Origin: Propionibacteriaceae bacterium
GTDB lineage: Bacteria > Actinomycetota > Actinomycetes > Propionibacteriales > Propionibacteriaceae
DNA: 32,000 nucleotides
NCBI GenBank assembly: GCA_031256725.1
Contig: JAIRQE010000010.1
Span: 17,194-49,193, forward strand
Direction of reading: 5' to 3'
In this document: positions 967-8,364 of the stretch, piece after piece
How positions within the stretch are numbered: position 1 is the stretch's first letter
Layout of the letters: each line of letters starts with the position of its first letter
Made by a program: the position numbers and the translations under genes
Notes under the pieces: generated by a model
Database searches by the model: none
What the model was told of the DNA's origin: nothing
Seen by the model: the letters and a program-made list of their open reading frames with translations, nothing else

Positions 967-985
967 TTCTCATGAACTCCTGTGA

Positions 986-1022
986 GCGCCAATCCACTTT
1001 ATGTGGGTTGGCGTTTACTTTT
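986..1022 (+). terminator. Rho-independent terminator of rpoA-rplQ
   Basis: The stem pairs gcgccaatccac (986-997) with gtgggttggcg (1003-1013). It is 11 bp including one G:U, with loop tttat, followed by tttactttt. Confidence 0.75.
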
Positions 1023-1196
1023 ATGGTGCATGATCACTTAACTTCGACAAAATCGCTGTGCGATTTGGTCTCGTGTCCCTCGCGAAAGAGTTTTACCTTC
1101 GCCTTCCCTGATAACCAGTAGTCACTTATGATAACATTATGACGCGATTTCTTTGGTTGATGGAAGGTCCAAAATCGTAGATAGGGGTACTCAACT

Positions 1197-1685
1197 GTGG
1201 GCGTTTTTGAGATCTTTCAACTGTGTATTCCAGTTGTGACATTTGCTATGGGGTACTTCTTTACGAATATCGGGTACAAGCGGGAGAGAAAGCTGAGCAT
1301 CATTCGGGAGAAGTTCGAGAAGCTTTATCATCCGTTTTATATGTTGATTCAGGAACTTGGTACAGAGAGGGAGGACGGGTTCGCCCTCGATAGTGATAAT
1401 CTTGATACCTTGAAACCCTTCTTTGACCACCTGATTAGCAATGTGTATCTCGCATCATCTGAGGGACAGAGGATCTTCTGGGAAACACGACAGTGGTACA
1501 TCCTGTGTCACAAGAGCGAGGCAACACCCGAGTGGGAGGAGGCCCTAGGCAAGGGGATTGGAGACCTCTTTAGCCACCTCTTTGAAGAGTACCTCGCCTG
1601 CGCTCGAACTTTGGGGTACGACCTCGCCTTTGGGTGGTACGGCGCCCGTACCGAAGAAGACTCTGATGCCCAAGAGCAGAGTTAG
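1197..1685 (+). CDS. hypothetical protein with one N-terminal hydrophobic helix (orphan ORF in an AT-richer patch)
   Basis: This is the only long ORF in the stretch and starts with GTG. The N-terminal segment FEIFQLCIPVVTFAMGYFF is hydrophobic. I recognise no family motif. The start is uncertain; an alternative ATG lies at 1248. Confidence 0.45.
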   Translation: MGVFEIFQLCIPVVTFAMGYFFTNIGYKRERKLSIIREKFEKLYHPFYMLIQELGTEREDGFALDSDNLDTLKPFFDHLISNVYLASSEGQRIFWETRQWYILCHKSEATPEWEEALGKGIGDLFSHLFEEYLACARTLGYDLAFGWYGARTEEDSDAQEQS

Positions 1686-1696
1686 CGCCGGTTTTG

Positions 1697-1729
1697 TTTT
1701 GGTGTGTTTTCGTGTCAAGAGGCCACAGG
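1697..1729. repeat. direct repeat copy 1 (TTTTGG...TGTCAAGAGG..ACAGG)
   Basis: ttttggtgtgttttcgtgtcaagaggccacagg resembles 1887-1917, ttttggcgcttttccatgtcaagaggacagg. TTTTGG and TGTCAAGAGG are shared exactly. Confidence 0.6.
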
Positions 1730-1782
1730 TCGGGTCCTTTAAGAATCAACGGCTTGAACACCATCAATTCTTTAGGGACACG

Positions 1783-1840
1783 ACCCCCCCCCACACACAC
1801 AACCAACCTCACACCCACGTACACCCTTCCCCCCCACCGC
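1783..1840 (+). repeat. strand-asymmetric C/A-rich low-complexity tract with C9 and C7 homopolymers
   Basis: acccccccccacacacacaaccaacctcacacccacgtacacccttcccccccaccgc. The C9 run is at 1784-1792 and the C7 run at 1829-1835. The + strand has almost no G, so the complement is G-rich. Confidence 0.9.
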
Positions 1841-1886
1841 AGATGAGACGAGCCGCTTATACCTAAGCAGAATCAGGGCCGTTCGG

Positions 1887-1917
1887 TTTTGGCGCTTTTC
1901 CATGTCAAGAGGACAGG
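1887..1917. repeat. direct repeat copy 2 (TTTTGG...TGTCAAGAGG..ACAGG)
   Basis: See 1697-1729. The two copies bracket the C/A-rich tract. Confidence 0.6.
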
Positions 1918-1944
1918 CCCAAGGATTGGATCATGAATGATCAC

Positions 1945-2352
1945 TCAATAGGTTAGTCTTCCAACAGGGTCCTCGGTCGTGAGTACCTCCCAGCCGAGCG
2001 AGGTTGCGGTCTTAATGAGTCCCTGATCAAAGGTCGCCAAGGTCGCACCGTGATAAGCGACCGTATCTAGAACGCAACAATGAGGCAAACGCAAGCGAGT
2101 GGAAATGCGAAGATGAGCAATCCTGGAAGGATGGGCGTCATCAGGAGACCATATTTCAATTCCGAGATTATGGATGGCTTGCGTGACGAGTGTCTCGCTG
2201 TTAACTCGCACAGCTCCTACAAGGATCTCTGAATAAGTGAGAGGATGAAGGAGTAGCTCTTCCTCGTGATCCATGATGGTTGCAGCAGGCTGAGAATGGA
2301 TGTGACCTTTTTCCAAGAGTGCAATGACCACGCAGGCATCGAGAACGATCAT
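1945..2352 (-). CDS. vapC: PIN-domain ribonuclease toxin VapC
   Basis: The N-terminus MIVLDACVVIAL carries the conserved Asp. Acidic residues in YSEIL, CVLDT and TFD are spaced as in PIN domains. The gene lies 11 nt downstream of a small antitoxin-like ORF on the same strand. Confidence 0.8.
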   Translation of the reverse strand: MIVLDACVVIALLEKGHIHSQPAATIMDHEEELLLHPLTYSEILVGAVRVNSETLVTQAIHNLGIEIWSPDDAHPSRIAHLRISTRLRLPHCCVLDTVAYHGATLATFDQGLIKTATSLGWEVLTTEDPVGRLTY

Positions 2353-2363
2353 TCACCCCAGCC

Positions 2364-2621
2364 TTACCAGTCTTTGCGTAATTCTTCAAGAAAGTTGTCA
2401 GGGAACGCCCCGGATAGAATCCCTTGTGATTCAGCTATTGCTTTCCTTCGAACAGCTCTCTTCGCCTCTCGCTCATCGGCCAAAGCCTGAGAACCGAGCA
2501 CTATCAATTGAGTTGCGATCTTGCTTTTGGGGGCATCCGGCCACCGGGAAGCAGCAGCCTCAAGAGCATCTTGAACCTGGTCCGTGAGTGTGATCTGAAT
2601 ACGCGGCAGAGTGGTAGCCAT
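2364..2621 (-). CDS. vapB: VapB-type antitoxin (ribbon-helix-helix-like N-terminus)
   Basis: This 85-aa ORF lies directly upstream of vapC. The N-terminal MATTLPRIQITLTDQVQDALEAAA looks like an RHH strand-helix. A TACACT box and an inverted repeat lie at its start. Confidence 0.7.
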   Translation of the reverse strand: MATTLPRIQITLTDQVQDALEAAASRWPDAPKSKIATQLIVLGSQALADEREAKRAVRRKAIAESQGILSGAFPDNFLEELRKDW

Positions 2622-2627
2622 AAGGAT

Positions 2628-2656
2628 AGTGTACCACTGAACATCTTTAGTGGTAC
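2628..2656 (-). promoter_or_regulatory. putative vapBC promoter/operator: -10 TACACT overlapped by a perfect 8-bp inverted repeat
   Basis: On the - strand TACACT (2633..2628) lies 6 nt before the vapB ATG (2621), implying a leaderless transcript. On the + strand gtaccact (2631-2638) and agtggtac (2649-2656) form a perfect inverted repeat with a 10-nt spacer. Confidence 0.5.
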
Positions 2657-2687
2657 AGATGCTGGATGGCGAAGACAGTCATGGCAC

Positions 2688-2975
2688 GACACGGTGGTGA
2701 ACGTCGCGAAATTAACATTTGTCGTTACTCCAGTGGAGCGATTGGTTTCCGCATACCTTGACCTAGCCGAGTCAATGGCTATGAAGCGAATTCCCATGAC
2801 GATGGAAGACTGGGAGGAACGGCTCAATGGATTTCCGGCCATAGCCGATCGTGAGATTCTCCAAGATGCTGGAAGAGTGAGCGCAGAGATCGCGAAAGCT
2901 CATGTAGAAACAGAGTTTGAGGAATATCGCATCGCCCAGGATGCGCTCTTTCGTTCGGACTTCGACAGATTCTAG
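2688..2975 (+). pseudogene. C-terminal remnant of a RhuM-family (virulence protein RhuM-like) gene
   Basis: The translation ...VERLVSAYLDLAESMAMKRIPMTMEDWEERLNGFPAIADREILQDAGRVSAEIAKAHVETEFEEYRIAQDALFRSDFD matches the conserved RhuM C-terminus (..MYLDxAE....PMxMxDW..KLDxFL....REIL..AGK.S...A...A..EYEK.R). The upstream part of the family is absent, and that space is occupied by vapB on the other strand. Confidence 0.55.
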
Positions 2976-3028
2976 GAGTTGTAGAATCAGGCCTCCATGA
3001 AAACCAGAAGTGATCTGTATGCTCACGG

Positions 3029-3072
3029 TTATTCTGAATCAGGGGTAGTTTTATTCTGAATCAGGGGTAGTT
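3029..3072 (+). repeat. perfect 22-bp tandem duplication (ttattctgaatcaggggtagtt x2) in the serS promoter region
   Basis: Period-22 identity holds exactly from 3029 to 3072 and breaks at both flanks. A degenerate third gaatcagg lies at 2984-2991. Confidence 0.95.
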
Positions 3073-3084
3073 GTGGTGAGGCAC

Positions 3085-3090
3085 TAGACT
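3085..3090 (+). promoter_or_regulatory. -10 box TAGACT of a leaderless serS transcript
   Basis: TAGACT fits the actinobacterial TANNNT consensus. It is followed by 7 nt (tgtaccc) and then the serS ATG at 3098. There is no Shine-Dalgarno sequence. Confidence 0.55.
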
Positions 3091-3097
3091 TGTACCC

Positions 3098-4372
3098 ATG
3101 ATTGATCCGAAACTGATTCGTACTAACCCTGACTACCTGAAGCGTGCCCAAGTAGCGCGCGGGGAGTCTGAAGAGTTGATCGACCAATTGATCTCGGCAG
3201 ATGAGGATCGTCGTACGGCTATCGCAAGCTTTGAGGCACTCAGGGCCCAGCAGAAGGAACTGGGGCGTTCGGTCGCCAAAGCCACATCCGAGACTCGTCC
3301 TGCACTCCTGGCTGAGGCATCAGCATTGGCTGAGAAGGTTAAAGAAGCCGAGGCAGCCTCCAGCGAAGTGGAAGCCACCTTTAATGAGTTGATGGCACTC
3401 GTACCCAACCCTGTTTTTGATGAGGTACCTCGCGGTGGGGAAGAGGACTTTGCCGTCCTCGAAACTGTCGGGACTCCGCGTGACTTTGAAGCGGAAGGTT
3501 TCACGCCGAAAGACCATCTGGAGCTTGGGGAGATCCTGGGAGCCATCGATATGGAACGAGGGGCCAAGGTTTCGGGATCGCGGTTCTATTTCTTGACGGG
3601 TGTGGGGGCCTTGCTGGAATTGGCGCTGACCCAGTACGCCGTCACGAAGGCGGTGGAATGGGGTTTCAACCCGATGATCGTACCCTCGCTTGTGAAGCCT
3701 TCGGCTATGGAGGGTACTGGCTTCCTTGGTCAGGCGGCCCAGGATGTCTACCATCTGCCAGCCGATGATCTCTACCTCGTGGGTACCTCTGAGGTTGCGC
3801 TGGCTGCGTACCATTCCGATGAGATCCTGGATGCGGGCACCCTTCCACGAAAATACATGGGGTACAGCCCCTGTTTCAGGCGCGAAGCCGGCTCCTATGG
3901 CAAGGACACTCGCGGTATCTTCCGCGTCCACTGGTTCGACAAGGTCGAGATGTTTGTGTACTGCCGTCCTGAGGATTCCGAAGCCGAACACCTCAACCTG
4001 CTGAACTTCGAGAAGGAGTTCATCACCTCGCTGGGGATCCCCTTCCAGGTTCTGGATGTTGCCTCGGGGGATTTAGGGCTGTCCGCAGCCCGCAAGTACG
4101 ACTGCTATGGGTGGGTACCAAGCCAGCAGAAGTACAGGGAAATCACCTCGACCTCGAACTGTACCCAGTTCCAGGCCCGTCGTCTCAATATCAGAGCCCG
4201 TTATGAGGATGGGATCGGCCCAGTCGCAACCCTCAACGGTACCCTGTGCGCCATGCCAAGGATGATCATCATGATCCTGGAGAATAATCAGCAAGAAGAC
4301 GGCTCAGTGGTCGTACCTGAGGTGCTTAGACCCTATCTTGGGGGACGTGAGGTACTGTCTCCTCTTTCATAG
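3098..4372 (+). CDS. serS: seryl-tRNA synthetase
   Basis: The N-terminus [23 protein letters not shown] is followed by a coiled-coil arm. Class II motifs are present ([49 protein letters not shown]). Confidence 0.97.
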
Positions 4373-4412
4373 CTGTAGTCTTCCTAGGGATAATTCCTAG
4401 AAAGGGACAACT

Positions 4413-4634
4413 ATGGCATATACGGTGGTACGGGTCCGTCTTCAAGGATGGACAGACAAGTTCCAGGATTTCGAGTCCGATACTGATTTTGGCGCGCAGG
4501 CCTATCCGGGCCTGGATAATTATCTATCAACGATGGAAATCAGGGGTTGGACAGTTGTTAATACCGCTGTCGCTTCCACAGGTGCTGGTATTCCAGCCCA
4601 CCTCATGATCACCCTTCACCGACCTGATGCTTAG
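4413..4634 (+). CDS. small DUF4177-like protein, paralogue 1 (subtype A, 73 aa)
   Basis: MAYTVVRV...LDNYLSTMEIRGWTVVNTAV...ITLHRPDA. By my hand alignment 38 of 73 positions are identical to paralogue 3. The RBS aaaggga lies 5 nt before the ATG. The pattern (beta-strand YxVV, ..L..ME.RGW.VV.., ..HRP) resembles DUF4177; this is inference, not a search result. Confidence 0.7.
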   Translation: MAYTVVRVRLQGWTDKFQDFESDTDFGAQAYPGLDNYLSTMEIRGWTVVNTAVASTGAGIPAHLMITLHRPDA

Positions 4635-4769
4635 TGTCCACCAACAAGGTATCCTCATGAATAACCTCATGAATCCTGGATGTGTTGATGAAGACTGGCT
4701 GACTATTTGAGCGGAGTCATTCTGTGGAAGAACTTTGTACGCAAGGATAGATATTTTACGGGTACCCAT

Positions 4770-4804
4770 CTAGAGTTATATCACATCGATATGAAAGGAA
4801 TGTC
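4770..4804 (+). promoter_or_regulatory. conserved promoter/leader cassette of subtype-B paralogues (copy 1)
   Basis: cTAGAGTtatatcacatcgatatgaaaggaatgtc. The -10 TAGAGT lies at 4771-4776 and the SD is aaagga. The cassette is nearly identical to 5471-5506 and 5732-5768. Confidence 0.55.
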
Positions 4805-5011
4805 ATGGCGTACACGATGGCGTGAGTCCCTCTGATGAGTACATGGAAGGACCCCTGTGAAGAAGTTCAGGATGATCACGATTTTAAAGTGAGGAACAAT
4901 AGTGCATTGGATGAGTATTTGACTACCATGGAGTCACGAGGCTGGTCGATTGTCAATGTCATCAATTCTGATTCCGTAACCTTCCTGATTACTTTTCACA
5001 GATCGGAGTAA
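4805..5011 (+). pseudogene. small DUF4177-like paralogue 2 (subtype B) interrupted by an in-frame TGA at codon 7
   Basis: The in-frame reading is MAYTMA*VPLMSTWKDPCEEVQDDHDFKVRNNSALDEYLTTMESRGWSIVNVINSDSVTFLITFHRSE*. The TGA (4823-4825) sits where all four other copies have Arg. The rest of the frame is intact. It is absent from the ORF track because the largest Met-initiated piece (4835-5011) is only 58 aa. Confidence 0.7.
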
Positions 5012-5082
5012 CCACGAATCCAGGATTGCGAAGATTGGCCGATAACGAGCCTCATGATTAGCCGAATGATTGTGAGGAAACC

Positions 5083-5304
5083 ATGGCTTATACAGTCGTA
5101 CGAATCAAGCTTGGGATTTGGAAAGAAAGATTCAAGGAAACACCCACCGACTCTGATTTCGATGTGGATACCTATCCAGAGATGGATGAGTACCTCTCAA
5201 CGATGGAGGAACGTGGCTGGTCCATAGTGAACACTGCCGTCAGTTCTGGTAGTAATGGAGTGGCCTACTATCTGCTGGTGACCCTCCATCGCCCCGAGGT
5301 ATGA
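5083..5304 (+). CDS. small DUF4177-like protein, paralogue 3 (subtype A, 73 aa)
   Basis: MAYTVVRIKLGIWKERF...MDEYLSTMEERGWSIVNTAV...VTLHRPEV. The RBS gaggaa precedes the ATG. Confidence 0.7.
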   Translation: MAYTVVRIKLGIWKERFKETPTDSDFDVDTYPEMDEYLSTMEERGWSIVNTAVSSGSNGVAYYLLVTLHRPEV

Positions 5305-5310
5305 CCCGTT

Positions 5311-5379
5311 ATACTGCGCGCAAGTCGCAGCATCCAGACCCCAGGATTCCTGGATTCTGCGACTAAAGCGCAGAATGAC
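5311..5379 (+). repeat. ~69-bp intergenic repeat with internal hairpin, copy 1
   Basis: atactgcgcgcaaGTCGCAGCATCCAGaccccaggattcCTGGATTCTGCGACtaaagcgcagaatgac. The stem pairs 5324-5337 with 5350-5363 (13 of 14 pairs). A second copy lies at 5983-6050. Confidence 0.85.
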
Positions 5380-5470
5380 GATGTGTGGTTATTCCCCTCA
5401 GCCAGAGGAAGCTTCTTGATCTGCCCCCCGCAGAAGGAACGGAGTCATTCTGTGGGGACTGTCGATGTGA

Positions 5471-5506
5471 CTAGACTCGTATCACATCGATATGAAAGGA
5501 AATGTC
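5471..5506 (+). promoter_or_regulatory. conserved promoter/leader cassette of subtype-B paralogues (copy 2)
   Basis: cTAGACTcgtatcacatcgatatgaaaggaaatgtc. The -10 TAGACT lies at 5472-5477 and the SD is aaagga. Confidence 0.55.
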
Positions 5507-5713
5507 ATGGCGTACACGATGGTGAGGGTTGGACTGTGGGGATTTCGTGATCCCTTCAAGGAAGTCGAGGATGATCATAGTTTTAAGACGCGAGCCTATC
5601 CCGACCTAGACGACTACCTCACGTCTATGGAGTCTCGTGGCTGGAGGATCGTCACAGTGAACCCTTTGCCTGATGGATTAAATATGCTCATTACATTCCA
5701 TAGACCTGAGTGA
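5507..5713 (+). CDS. small DUF4177-like protein, paralogue 4 (subtype B, 68 aa)
   Basis: MAYTMVRVGLWGFRDPFKEVEDDHSFKTRAYPDLDDYLTSMESRGWRIVTV...ITFHRPE. I place the start at 5507 rather than the ORF-track 5492. All paralogues begin MAYT, and the upstream ATG lies inside the conserved SD cassette (atgaaagga). Confidence 0.7.
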   Translation: MAYTMVRVGLWGFRDPFKEVEDDHSFKTRAYPDLDDYLTSMESRGWRIVTVNPLPDGLNMLITFHRPE

Positions 5714-5731
5714 CCGTGTACCTGGCCACGG

Positions 5732-5768
5732 CTAGACTTTAGTATCACGTCGATATGAAAGGAACGCC
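5732..5768 (+). promoter_or_regulatory. conserved promoter/leader cassette of subtype-B paralogues (copy 3)
   Basis: cTAGACTttagtatcacgtcgatatgaaaggaacgcc. The -10 TAGACT lies at 5733-5738 and the SD is aaagga. Confidence 0.55.
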
Positions 5769-5972
5769 ATGGCTTACACAATGGTACGAATCCCTATGGT
5801 AGGTGTCTTCTCAAGCCCCTTCAAAGTAGTTGAGGATGACCATGACTTTAAAGTGAAAAACCATCCCGAGTTGGATGATTATCTGACGACCATGGAGTCG
5901 CGAGGATGGGCAATCATATCCGTTGAGTCCTTCGGTGAAGGAATCCTCGTGACCTTTCACAGACCTGAGTAG
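5769..5972 (+). CDS. small DUF4177-like protein, paralogue 5 (subtype B, 67 aa)
   Basis: MAYTMVRIPMVGVFSSPFKVVEDDHDFKVKNHPELDDYLTTMESRGWAIISV...VTFHRPE. Confidence 0.7.
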   Translation: MAYTMVRIPMVGVFSSPFKVVEDDHDFKVKNHPELDDYLTTMESRGWAIISVESFGEGILVTFHRPE

Positions 5973-5982
5973 TCACCACGTC

Positions 5983-6050
5983 ATACCGCGCGCAAGTCGC
6001 AGCATCTAGGCATAGAATTCTGGATTCTGCGACTGAGTGCGCAGAATGAC
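5983..6050 (+). repeat. ~68-bp intergenic repeat with internal hairpin, copy 2
   Basis: ataccgcgcgcaaGTCGCAGCATCTAGGcatagaattCTGGATTCTGCGACtgagtgcgcagaatgac. The stem is preserved, and a C-to-T change becomes a U:G pair on the + strand. Confidence 0.85.
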
Positions 6051-6062
6051 TGTACAAACAGC

Positions 6063-6068
6063 TAGACT
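6063..6068 (+). promoter_or_regulatory. -10 box TAGACT of a leaderless HAD-hydrolase transcript
   Basis: gcTAGACTcgtaaacATG has a 7-nt spacer to the ATG at 6076. The block ctagactcgta is identical to the one upstream of paralogue 4 (5471-5481). Confidence 0.5.
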
Positions 6069-6075
6069 CGTAAAC

Positions 6076-6885
6076 ATGGCGATACGAAGGGTCCCTCAAC
6101 AATGGAAGCCCCAGCTTGTCGCCGTTGATATAGATGGCACAATCGTTGGTCGTGATGGAATCGTACCCCCCGAGATTGCGGAGAAGCTTTGCCAGATCCG
6201 CACCCAAGGGGTGCCGGTCGTGATCGTCACGGGGCGTTCGTGGCTGTCCTCCCAGATCATCCTTGACCAACTCCAGATTCCGGGAATCTACTGTGTTTGC
6301 AATAATGGCGCCACTGTGGTCACCTATCCACCCCTTGCCCTGCATCGGGCGGAAACCTTCGATCCAACCCCGATCCTTGAAGTGGTACGACACCACCCAA
6401 CCGCCATCGTGGCTATCGAGGATTTTGGGAGGGGGTACAAGGTATCCAAACCCTTCCCACCAGGGATATATAGTCTCCATGGAGAAACGACTCTCGTGAC
6501 CCTTGATGAGATGGCCCAAGAACCCCAGTCGAGAGTGATCTTGCGTGATCCCGAGTCAAGCGCAGAAGAATTCGATGTACTGCTTGCTCAGATTGATTTG
6601 GGGGATCTCTATTCCGCAAGGGTTGCTCCCACATGGTTGGATCTGGGCGCTAGTACAGCTGGAAAAGACAAAGGGTTAGCTTTCGTGGCAGCCCAACTGG
6701 GAATCGAACAGGCAGATGTACTAGGTATCGGTGATGGGTACAACGATATTGACTTGCTGAGTTGGGTTGGTAGGGGAGTGGCTCTTGGTGATTCCCCGCC
6801 CGAATTGGTGGCTGTCGCAGACCATGTGACTGCGAGTTTCGCCGAGGGGGGAACCCTGTCCGAGCTGCGGCGATGGTTTGAGTAA
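6076..6885 (+). CDS. Cof-type HAD-IIB family hydrolase/phosphatase
   Basis: Motif I is LVAVDIDGTIV and motif II is VVIVTGRS. The C-terminal GIGDGYNDIDLL matches the Cof-like GDxxND motif. I moved the start from the ORF-track 6037 to 6076 because the leaderless promoter fits there and the hairpin repeat overlaps 6037-6050. Confidence 0.85.
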   Translation: MAIRRVPQQWKPQLVAVDIDGTIVGRDGIVPPEIAEKLCQIRTQGVPVVIVTGRSWLSSQIILDQLQIPGIYCVCNNGATVVTYPPLALHRAETFDPTPILEVVRHHPTAIVAIEDFGRGYKVSKPFPPGIYSLHGETTLVTLDEMAQEPQSRVILRDPESSAEEFDVLLAQIDLGDLYSARVAPTWLDLGASTAGKDKGLAFVAAQLGIEQADVLGIGDGYNDIDLLSWVGRGVALGDSPPELVAVADHVTASFAEGGTLSELRRWFE

Positions 6886-6990
6886 ATCCTACTAGTTGAG
6901 ACAAACACCGCTGGGAGGGGTTAGCTTCTCTGAAGTCTGTTGGAGTGTACGCTATGATGATAACTAATCTGTGTGTACAGGTGGTGAGCG

Positions 6991-8364
6991 ATGATTGATG
7001 TGACGGACCTGACTAAGAGGTTCGGTAGGAAGACTGCTGTCGACGATTTAAGCTTCTCCGTGCGCGCAGGTATGGTTACCGGATTCTTGGGACCCAATGG
7101 GGCAGGTAAGTCCACAACAATGAGGCTCATTCTTGGCCTTGATCGACCCAACAACGGTCGTGCTCGCGTTAATGGTCGTACCTACAAATCCACTAAGGCG
7201 CCTATGACAGAGGTTGGTGCCCTTCTTGACTCCAAATCTGTACACCCTGGACGTACTGCTCGCAATCATCTTCGTGCGCTGGCGGCCACCCATGGAATCT
7301 CACGGAAACGAGTCGATGAAGTCATCGAGATGGTTGGCCTTGAGTCTGTTGCCAGAAAGCGGGCTGGTACCTTCTCCCCAGGGATGAGCCAACGCCTAGG
7401 GTTAGCGATCGCATTATTGGGAGATCCGCAGACTCTCATCCTTGATGAGCCTATGAACGGGCTTGATCCTCAGGGGGTTGCATGGCTCCGAAACCTCTTG
7501 GAGCATCTGTCATCTGAGGGGAGGACAGTCTTCGTTTCAAGCCATCTCATCTCAGAAATGGCTCAGCTTGCCAGTCATCTCATTATCATCGGTAGGGGAC
7601 AACTCATCGCGGATTCACCCACGGCTGAGCTTGCCGAGAAAGGGTCAGGCGTTGTCACGCGTGTGAGATCCCCTGAATTGGGAGAACTTGCGGAAGCGGT
7701 CAAGGAAGCCGGTCATACTTATACCGATCCGGGGGATGGATCACTGTTGATCTCAGGATTGACCCCGGACGCCATTGGTGATGAGGCGGCTTACAGGGGC
7801 TGGGCAATCTATGAGATGGCTCCAGTACACCGCACCCTGGAGGAAATCTACATGGAGTTGACCCACTCCGTGCAGGAGTTCCAGGCAGAAAACAGCATCT
7901 TCGGGTCTCCAATGAGGAGTCCTTCAAAGCCACCCGTCATACTAAAACCACCCGTGTCCATGCATACGATTCCCCACGAAGCGCCTGTCCAACATCACCG
8001 TCGCGATGTGGAGCCCCAAAGTCTCACAACCACGGGAAGCCATCGAGTGACCGATATTTTCCGTGACGACGATACCCCACCACCTGATCCTGTACACATA
8101 TCAACTCCCCATTTGCAGTTGGGGCCGGTACGATCTCCCCAAACACGTCCGGGACGAGCACCCACAGATTCGATCGTGCCAAGCGACCTGGGGCCACATG
8201 TGCGGCCAAGGCCTATGGGAGTCCATCCCAGTGCAGATTCATGGGATGACTCCTATGATGATACCCGCATACCTGAGTCTTATGACTACGACTCCTATGA
8301 CTCTGATTATGATGACGATGATGATTACGCCCATCCCCCCAGATCCCGGGCATGGGAGGTCTGA
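6991..8364 (+). CDS. ABC transporter ATP-binding protein (ABC-2 subfamily partner) with a ~150-aa P-rich, D/Y-rich C-terminal extension
   Basis: The motifs are canonical: Walker A GPNGAGKST, signature FSPGMSQRL, Walker B LILDEP and H-loop SSHL. The usual C-terminus (TLEEIYMELT) is followed by a low-complexity tail ending DSWDDSYDDTRIPESYDYDSYDSDYDDDDDYAHPP. Confidence 0.9.
   Translation: MIDVTDLTKRFGRKTAVDDLSFSVRAGMVTGFLGPNGAGKSTTMRLILGLDRPNNGRARVNGRTYKSTKAPMTEVGALLDSKSVHPGRTARNHLRALAATHGISRKRVDEVIEMVGLESVARKRAGTFSPGMSQRLGLAIALLGDPQTLILDEPMNGLDPQGVAWLRNLLEHLSSEGRTVFVSSHLISEMAQLASHLIIIGRGQLIADSPTAELAEKGSGVVTRVRSPELGELAEAVKEAGHTYTDPGDGSLLISGLTPDAIGDEAAYRGWAIYEMAPVHRTLEEIYMELTHSVQEFQAENSIFGSPMRSPSKPPVILKPPVSMHTIPHEAPVQHHRRDVEPQSLTTTGSHRVTDIFRDDDTPPPDPVHISTPHLQLGPVRSPQTRPGRAPTDSIVPSDLGPHVRPRPMGVHPSADSWDDSYDDTRIPESYDYDSYDSDYDDDDDYAHPPRSRAWEV

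Follow-up and report, generated by a model that had tools for sequence, protein, structure and literature searches.

Five small acidic genes of two subtypes, remotely related to DUF4177, form a tandem array after serS in a Propionibacteriaceae genome

Introduction

The locus described here raises a simple question: what are the five short genes that follow one another on the same strand between the seryl-tRNA synthetase (SerRS) gene serS and a HAD hydrolase gene in a Propionibacteriaceae genome, and how did they come to be five? They occupy positions 4413–5972 of the window, by which the whole analyzed stretch of 32,000 nt is meant (GenBank assembly GCA_031256725.1, contig JAIRQE010000010.1, positions 17,194–49,193, forward strand). 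An earlier note on this DNA had read them as a tandem array of DUF4177-like paralogues of two alternating subtypes, A and B, without a counterpart among described systems, and the present analysis has likewise found no described system that matches the array.

The best explanation as a whole, to which a probability of about 0.6 may be given, is that these genes encode a lineage-restricted, small, acidic binding module of the serS operon, represented by A and B isoforms and expanded in the window into a cassette-built array. The evidence on the genes, their subtypes, their genomic position, their predicted fold and the repeats around them is presented below, together with the competing interpretations.

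The five copies of the array

The ORF listing and direct reading of the sequence place five homologous small ORFs on the forward strand between serS and a Cof-type HAD gene, in the order A-B-A-B-B. Copy 1 (4413–4634, subtype A, 73 aa, LBG99_03440) begins 40 nt past the serS stop, behind the ribosome-binding site (RBS) AAAGGGA, and is followed by copy 2 (4805–5011, subtype B, interrupted), copy 3 (5083–5304, subtype A, 73 aa, LBG99_03445), copy 4 (5507–5713, subtype B, 68 aa, MDR0488450.1) and copy 5 (5769–5972, subtype B, 67 aa, LBG99_03455). A hidden Markov model (HMM) of the family, made solely from homologues outside the window and run on the six-frame translation of the whole 32 kb, matched exactly five segments at E-values from 5e-21 to 2e-34 (2.4e-32, 5e-21, 1.8e-34, 8.8e-31 and 6.9e-27 for copies 1 to 5, respectively, that of copy 2 covering profile positions 11–70 only), with the next best match at E 2.1; the repetition is therefore far beyond chance. 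The coordinates, the Pfam assignments of the two anchor genes and this independent model confirm the five same-strand paralogous ORFs of the earlier note. The motifs it had listed are also present, namely the core D(N/E/D)YL(S/T)(S/T)ME.RGW, the C-terminal (L/F)HR(P/S)(D/E) and, in the B copies, (E/Q)DDH.FK, and copies 1 and 3, both of subtype A, are indeed identical at 38 of 73 positions (52%).

The further claims that all five copies are intact and share the start MAYT(V/M)(V/A)R do not hold for copy 2, which opens ATG GCG TAC ACG ATG GCG TGA and thus reads MAYTMA followed by an in-frame stop at codon 7 (4823–4825), not MAYTMAR. Copy 5 has CGA at the corresponding position, which points to a one-step nonsense change in copy 2; on the same ground, recoding of the TGA as selenocysteine or tryptophan was considered and rejected. 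The longest open frame in copy 2 runs from the ATG at 4835 and encodes 58 aa without strand 1 of the predicted fold, and the copy also carries F17C, at a nearly invariant position of the family. The NCBI annotation includes copies 1, 3, 4 and 5 and omits copy 2, for which JGI called only the 58-aa ORF. These features of its sequence suggest that copy 2 is a probable pseudogene, the alternative being a 58-aa product made from ATG 4835 and lacking strand 1.

The public names attached to copy 4 are spurious: the NCBI label of MDR0488450.1, ‘strawberry notch family protein’, goes back to a 10.7-bit match to AAA_34, and the JGI label for a 73-aa form with its start at 5492 is ‘phosphoglycolate phosphatase-like HAD superfamily hydrolase’.

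Coding constraint

Pairwise Nei–Gojobori counts between the copies gave proportions of synonymous differences (pS) of 0.68–0.89, a saturated range, against proportions of non-synonymous differences (pN) of 0.23–0.37, and the ratio of non-synonymous to synonymous rates (omega, dN/dS) among window copies was ~0.01–0.26 wherever the synonymous rate could be estimated. Since synonymous divergence far exceeds non-synonymous divergence, with dN/dS not near 1 and all five copies recovered by the independent HMM, the view that these are real, selected coding sequences is borne out. The identity between copies in DNA is only 55–65%, which marks them as old duplicates and not as assembly artefacts. A Shine–Dalgarno sequence lies 6–10 nt before the ATG in every copy and in every homologue examined, and across an alignment of 31 family sequences seven residues are invariant (D23, L38, M41, E42, R44, W46 and T67), with H69, F17 and F26 nearly so.

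Two subtypes, A and B

The division into two subtypes is real, as the two form separate clades that reach into other genomes and differ at diagnostic positions. In a neighbor-joining tree, a B clade comprising W2, W4 and W5 (copies 2, 4 and 5 of the window) with P0023, P0004 and P0028, and with P0008 and P0009 as outliers, stands apart from all other sequences, with a bootstrap of 59% for its core and 75% when the outliers are included. The two A copies, W1 and W3, were sisters in none of 200 bootstrap replicates, indicating that the duplications are old. From A to B the diagnostic changes are V5M, V48I, T51V and L67F; the loop between strands 2 and 3 is 4–6 residues shorter in B, and A proteins end in TLHR after the longer loop, whereas B proteins end in TFHR and carry DDH.FK. 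Subtype B was found at L004, L014 and L023, all three without a HAD gene at this position (L numbers designate the loci fetched for comparison). Most simply read, the A/B duplication is older than these lineages, most of which kept one subtype.

The earlier note had taken the alternation of A and B to suggest hetero-oligomers, and the rival that survives best makes these obligate, with the A-B-A-B-B order ensuring stoichiometric co-expression of a two-component assembly. The coexistence and alternation of two well-separated subtypes in the window, both under purifying selection, would be in agreement with it. Nevertheless, the related serS-linked loci, ~12 in number, carry A or B, never both, and usually as a single gene, and one of the three B copies of the window is interrupted by a stop. 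The presence of one subtype per related locus argues against an obligate A:B complex and for redundancy, that is, for interchangeable isoforms, and, with the reservation that all sources are incomplete bins or contigs, the hetero-oligomer must be considered unlikely.

Genomic context and distribution of the family

The upstream anchor of the array, serS (3098–4372, forward strand; Pfam Seryl_tRNA_N and tRNA-synt_2b), is 80–85% identical to its counterparts 5′ of the small gene in L001, L002, L004, L007, L015, L018, L019 and L023. The Cof-type HAD-IIB hydrolase gene (6046–6885, forward strand; Pfam Hydrolase_3, 4e-32) is the downstream anchor in A-type loci, and its homologues come after the small gene in L001, L002, L015, L016, L019, L020 and L022. 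Its start codon is likely the ATG at 6046, because the MTVQ... encoded there corresponds to the MTPVQ... at the HAD start of L001.

The window proteins L17, SerRS, HAD, ABC, ABC-2 and CDF were mapped onto all fetched loci, which were also scanned with the family HMM. A common backbone emerged, rplQ-serS-x-(HAD)-ABC-ABC2-CDF, in which x is the small gene, and the neighbors in the window are the same (rplQ, serS, HAD, ABC, ABC-2 and CDF). The small gene stands directly after serS in ~12 distinct loci, among them L001/L017, L002/L003, L004/5/6/24, L007, L015, L016, L018, L019, L022 and L023, and the gap between the two genes ranges from 2 nt (L004) to ~330 nt (L023); L020 shows x-HAD-ABC, and L014 nearly duplicates L023. 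The small gene and HAD share 4 nt (ATGA), at the stop of the one and the start of the other, in L001 and L002. According to the HMM scan, the copy number is one everywhere except in L007 (two, both A) and in the window (five), and of the ~15 loci seen the window alone has an array of five genes and two subtypes.

The family itself is very rare and, among its named members, restricted to uncultured Propionibacteriaceae. An exhaustive HMMER search of 1.84 billion cluster representatives returned 10 matches, of which nine are genuine; the tenth, a repetitive 529-aa protein, was rejected. A profile search of a 5.8-billion-cluster database gave 28 proteins, all the named ones being listed as ‘MAG: Propionibacteriaceae bacterium’ (MAG, metagenome-assembled genome), a pattern scan of 185,579 species genomes gave one locus, in MAG Lab288P4bin17, and a scan of JGI metagenomes added 10 further contigs. 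The Lab288 MAG comes from the gut of Labiotermes labralis, a termite that feeds on soil (PMC7024585). Independent assemblies from several samples contain homologues in which the same residues are invariant. A single-sequence word-index search returned the query alone and missed even the paralogues of the window, and is therefore not exhaustive for such short proteins.

Predicted fold and relation to DUF4177

The family proteins are 67–86 aa long and acidic, with isoelectric points (pI) of 4.4–5.5 and more D+E than K+R in all 14 members computed. The AlphaFold2 (AF2) model of an A protein (copy 3) has a strand at 2–9, a loop at 13–29, a helix at 32–43 and strands at 47–55 and 62–70, with a mean predicted local distance difference test score (pLDDT) of 64; that of a B protein (copy 4; pLDDT 72.7) has strands at 2–9, 47–53 and 59–66 and a helix at 32–43. 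The acidic loop, around 13–29, is of low confidence in both and is presumably disordered. The fold pattern that the earlier note had foreseen, a strand, a variable loop, a helix ending in GW.(V/I)V and a terminal strand with HRP, is found in both models as strand, acidic loop, helix ending in RGW and then two strands. Inspection of the alignment by eye disclosed no leader, transmembrane segment, double-glycine motif or cysteine pairs.

The likeness expressed by ‘DUF4177-like’ is a remote one. Against Pfam DUF4177 (PF13783), copy 3 scores 15.1 bits (E 0.027), below the gathering threshold of 25, and the other four window copies give no match; among 14 family members just two come below E 1 (best value 0.0046), both still sub-threshold. 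When the 31-sequence family alignment was compared by hhalign with one of 36 DUF4177 proteins, taken from 196 retrieved as pre-annotated PF13783, the two aligned over 59 columns, from strand 1 to the C-terminal basic residue and proline, at E 1.1e-4 but with a probability of only 55.9%. The full-length alignment and the shared topology thus speak for the likeness, whereas the Pfam scores and the modest probability do not. Both groups comprise proteins of ~65 aa with one helix and three strands in the same order (DUF4177 topology according to PMC11322243); in both, the helix ends in G-W-x-(L/V/I)-V leading into strand 2, and the C-terminal strand carries a basic residue and P (KRP in DUF4177, HRP here). 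The differences are equally clear: the W-E-Y start that is a signature of DUF4177 is replaced by A-Y-T/K, and its glycine-rich G(F)xxGGKxD loop by an acidic loop of 12–17 residues, W(R/K)D.F..EDD.DF..YP, and of the DUF4177 residues N..G..GWELV and the K-R-P end just G-W-x-(V/I)-V and the basic residue with P are kept. The contexts also differ, as the five canonical DUF4177 genes examined are singletons in unrelated surroundings, in contrast to a family anchored after serS and amplified in the window. The family is most aptly called a distant and divergent DUF4177 relative and, being below the criteria of Pfam, should not be filed as a member.

The literature on DUF4177, PF13783 and YjzH gives no established function, as the earlier note had stated. 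B. subtilis YjzH has been found by RNA-interactome capture (bioRxiv 10.1101/2025.03.21.644579), synteny of DUF4177 with crp/whiB has been described in Streptomyces (PMC13118837), and a bacteriocin-like antibacterial activity has been claimed for PEG 446, a DUF4177 protein of 66 aa from Clostridium tyrobutyricum (PMC11322243). PEG 446 resembles the present family in being a small single domain of one helix and three strands (PMC11322243); it is, however, a bona fide PF13783 protein of a Firmicute, with an activity reported for the recombinant protein only, whereas the proteins considered here are acidic, remote in sequence and, by inspection, without an export signal.

Other relationships are fainter. 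DUF2812 (PF11193) matches the N-terminal region of five of the 14 members weakly, all below threshold (best 15 bits, E 0.0014–0.03, against 27.8), the window proteins being only ~70 aa long. ACT-like and other small strand-helix-strand-strand ligand-binding domains share one helix on a small antiparallel sheet, but a second helix and a fourth strand set ACT domains apart, and the corresponding Foldseek values (E 0.06–0.5, TM 0.4–0.55) are not evidence of a relationship. Foldseek searches of both models against the PDB, and of the A model against BFVD, gave no match at E<=0.001, and the neighbors they offered (ACT-like, Alba, MinE, KCTD and phage ORFs, at TM 0.4–0.55) were set aside as uninterpretable. 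An NCBIfam scan of the five peptides gave no match, a PDB sequence search with the family profile nothing below E 0.1, PHROGs nothing significant, PADLOC no match at E<0.05, and Pfam at any level no match to an immunity family.

The top PDB match of the profile, at E 0.11, joins the acidic Trp/Phe loop (profile ~9–37) to the motif WEENWDDVEVDDDF, with which SEM1/DSS1 binds through acidic residues. The similarity is likely compositional; at most it hints at a possible protein-binding role of the loop.

A canonical DUF4177 gene lies directly upstream of aspS, which encodes a class II aminoacyl-tRNA synthetase, in GCA_038207335.1 (L025, 4001–4198). A general linkage of DUF4177 to aminoacyl-tRNA synthetase genes was considered and rejected, as this is one of five canonical genes, the other four being in unrelated contexts, and the arrangement, although a second case of a DUF4177-type gene beside one for a class II synthetase, is probably a coincidence.

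Hairpin repeats, upstream cassettes and the origin of the array

Two strong hairpins bracket the block formed by copies 4 and 5. Hairpin 1 (5307–5380, forward strand) has a stem of ~28 bp and a folding energy of -41.3 kcal/mol (z-score -7.9), and hairpin 2 (5979–6050, forward strand) one of -39.1 kcal/mol (z -6.2), the 3′ arm of the latter holding the ATG at 6046. As this ATG lies within the arm, hairpin 2 could occlude the HAD start codon in the mRNA, if the predicted structure forms. The stretch that spans the end of copy 3 and hairpin 1 (5275–5379) and its counterpart with the end of copy 5 and hairpin 2 (5946–6050) are 78% identical over 107 nt. This match takes in GCGCAGAATGAC, which includes the HAD start codon, so the initial bases of HAD were duplicated as well; what is left of this HAD 5′ end (GCGCAGAATGAC..., GCGCAGAATGACGATG...) is seen after hairpin 1, on the 3′ side of copy 3 (5368–5412).

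The hairpin element has an invariant right arm, TTCTGGATTCTGCGACT..GCRCAGAAKGAC, with which the left arm pairs in a register that is shifted between lineages. It stands on both sides of the single B gene in L023 (3845–3930 and 4258–4345), where the upstream hairpin reaches -52 kcal/mol (z -7.8) and the downstream one is weaker, and it occurs three times in L014 (85–170, 329–414 and 738–825). Its nature could be that of a REP/MITE-like element, of a terminator or insulator without a U-tract, or of a regulatory hairpin. Rfam, searched at E<=1 over 2000–8000, gave no match to the hairpins or to the cassettes upstream of the B copies, and a Na+ riboswitch match on the minus strand inside HAD was discarded as being at chance level. 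RNA folding of the spacers at 4635–4770, 5012–5082 and 5714–5768 gave no signal of structure (z +0.3 to -1.1).

The B copies share a second kind of repeated sequence. A conserved block of 22–31 nt, TATCACRTCGATATGAAAGGAA, precedes each of them (three matches, against 0.01 expected by chance), containing the RBS AAAGGAA and the near-palindrome TCACATCGATATGA, with TAGAGT or TAGACT (TAGAST) just upstream. For copy 2 this B cassette is CTAGAGTTATATCACATCGATATGAAAGGAA (4770–4800), part of an upstream region (4709–4804, forward strand) homologous to that 5′ of copy 4; for copy 4 it lies at 5471–5501 (forward strand), with TAGACT, TCACATCGATATGA and AAAGGAA, and for copy 5 the conserved block is at 5734–5764 (forward strand). 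The homology of the regions upstream of copies 2 and 4 extends over ~100 nt (4709–4820 against 5437–5522), with a 95% match between 4709–4727 and 5437–5455 and one of 92% between 4770–4820 and 5471–5522. TAGAST fits the actinobacterial -10 pattern TANNNT, and TAGACT also occurs before an internal ATG of HAD (6064–6069). The earlier note had assigned a promoter cassette to each B copy; a conserved upstream block is indeed there, but a scan for the sigma-70 consensus gave no promoter at any B cassette, and the counts of sigma-70 promoters and terminators were at or below those expected from shuffled sequence. Independent regulation of the B copies, which the earlier note had suggested, is possible, but the scan lends it no support.

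Taken from the sequence comparisons, the array is best explained by [hairpin-B] and [A] cassettes having been duplicated or recombined locally, together with differential loss, because the hairpin that flanks copies 4 and 5 also flanks the single B gene of L014 and L023.

Other repeats are found at the same place in related loci. In L001, a direct repeat of 160 nt (1859–2019 and 3133–3294; 88–96% identical) lies on either side of the A-HAD pair and has taken the place of the first codons of the small gene, which reads MHPGNTVVRV from a GTG start where MAYTVVRV would be usual; this gene may be 5′-truncated or re-started. Since L001 bears a repeat different from that of the window, the intergenic position is apparently prone to repeat activity. 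In L023, tandem repeats (24 nt three times and 20–22 nt five times) lie at 3764–3835 and 4333–4453, beyond the pair of hairpins around the B gene, and the relic CAGAATGAC persists although this locus has no HAD gene.

Possible functions of the family

On the preferred explanation, the family would consist of small acidic proteins, presumably cytoplasmic, that form a strongly diverged branch of the DUF4177 superfamily. The ancestral position would be directly after serS in the rplQ-serS-x-(HAD)-ABC region of uncultured Propionibacteriaceae (a termite gut being the source of at least one related MAG), and the small gene would most likely be co-transcribed with its neighbors and, in some genomes, translationally coupled to them. 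Two paralogous subtypes would have arisen long ago, with most lineages keeping one gene of one subtype, and the genome of the window would have kept both and expanded them to five through duplication or recombination of hairpin-bounded cassettes, a nonsense mutation striking copy 2 later. Each protein is regarded as a putative small binding or oligomerizing module, with E42, R44, W46, T67 and H69 together with the acidic loop around D23/F26 as the candidate binding surface; A and B would be interchangeable isoforms and not obligate partners. From the linkage, SerRS or the HAD phosphatase would be the first candidates for a partner.

Several points weigh against this explanation. The binding mechanism is drawn from size, charge and conservation only, the AF2 models are of moderate confidence, the Pfam scores for DUF4177 are sub-threshold, the hhalign probability is modest, and the Foldseek searches reported above were negative. 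Three members (L009, L011 and L012) stand alone away from serS, and the linkage to this gene is thus not obligatory. The genomes with one subtype could hide the other elsewhere, all sources being incomplete MAGs or contigs, the stop in copy 2 could be an error of the MAG consensus, and differential loss of the B cassette is not distinguishable from its lateral acquisition.

A bolder form of the preferred explanation would make the family an accessory factor of SerRS, or of the handling of serine or phosphoserine by HAD, retained in the serS operon for its binding to, or modulation of, SerRS, the acidic loop acting, for example, as a tRNA-like or substrate mimic and the array as a set of tuning isoforms in one termite-gut lineage. 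This proposal is speculative and has a low probability; if true, it would provide the first functional handle on the DUF4177 superfamily.

Next to the obligate hetero-oligomer discussed above, the rival that deserves most attention is a diversified, immunity- or antitoxin-like array (an ‘orphan immunity island’), in which each paralogue would neutralize a different variant of a basic toxin and the copy number would grow under conflict. Tandem, small, acidic (pI 4.4–5.5) and strongly diverged copies whose number differs between strains are what such an array might look like, and serS is immediately preceded by a ~2.1-kb insert that holds a RhuM-family fragment. Yet Pfam annotation of the neighbors shows no toxin gene in or beside the array, and neither PADLOC nor the immunity families of Pfam gave a match. 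Moreover, a single, syntenic and apparently vertically inherited copy follows serS in ~10 lineages, and the most conserved parts of the proteins are surface motifs and not just the core, all of which renders this interpretation improbable.

Less can be said for bacteriocin-like peptides, that is, for antibacterial products in the form of variant precursors, with the downstream ABC ATPase and ABC-2 permease serving export or immunity. The activity reported for PEG 446 (PMC11322243) may be cited in its favor, as may the presence of the ABC ATPase and ABC-2 permease genes, following either the small gene or HAD, in every serS-linked locus of sufficient length; but the proteins are acidic and not cationic, the features of such precursors sought by eye (leader, double-glycine motif, cysteine pairs) are absent, HAD stands in between in most loci, no such transporter adjoins the stand-alone members in L009 and L011, and the relation to DUF4177 on which the comparison with PEG 446 depends is itself marginal, which makes this a very improbable reading. 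Finally, decaying duplicates without function, or an artefact of assembly, as the nonsense codon of copy 2 and the origin of the sequence from a metagenome bin might suggest, are effectively refuted already by the low DNA identity between copies, by pN being much below pS, by the matches of the independent HMM, and by the homologues with the same invariant residues in independent assemblies.

The family is unnamed and very narrowly distributed, and the value of the locus at present is that of an annotation correction and a lead. If the preferred explanation holds, there would be a well-delimited, previously unnamed small-protein family of ~30 sequences and two subtypes, linked unusually closely to serS, an essential housekeeping gene, in an uncultured lineage of insect guts; the locus would also illustrate clearly, on a small scale, how one passenger gene of an operon turns into an array of five by way of hairpin-bounded cassettes. 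Lineage-specific expansion of orphan small genes is a common phenomenon; the locus would provide links to the uncharacterized DUF4177 superfamily, with no long-standing question opened currently.

Neighboring sequences in the window

Upstream of the array, an insert of ~2.1 kb (967–3097) parts rplQ (433–966) from serS, two genes that are only 30–130 nt apart in L004, L007 and L023. It contains an unknown 162-aa ORF (1197–1685), a C-terminal fragment of the RhuM family (2508–2975) and, overlapping the latter, an 85-aa ORF on the minus strand (2364–2621), and is probably the remnant of a mobile or defense element. Downstream of HAD, the ABC ATPase (6991–8364) has a long, low-complexity C-terminal tail rich in Pro, Asp and Tyr, the length of which is very variable: the protein measures 457 aa in the window, 555 aa in L014 (941–2608) and 1091 aa in L001 (3381–6656).

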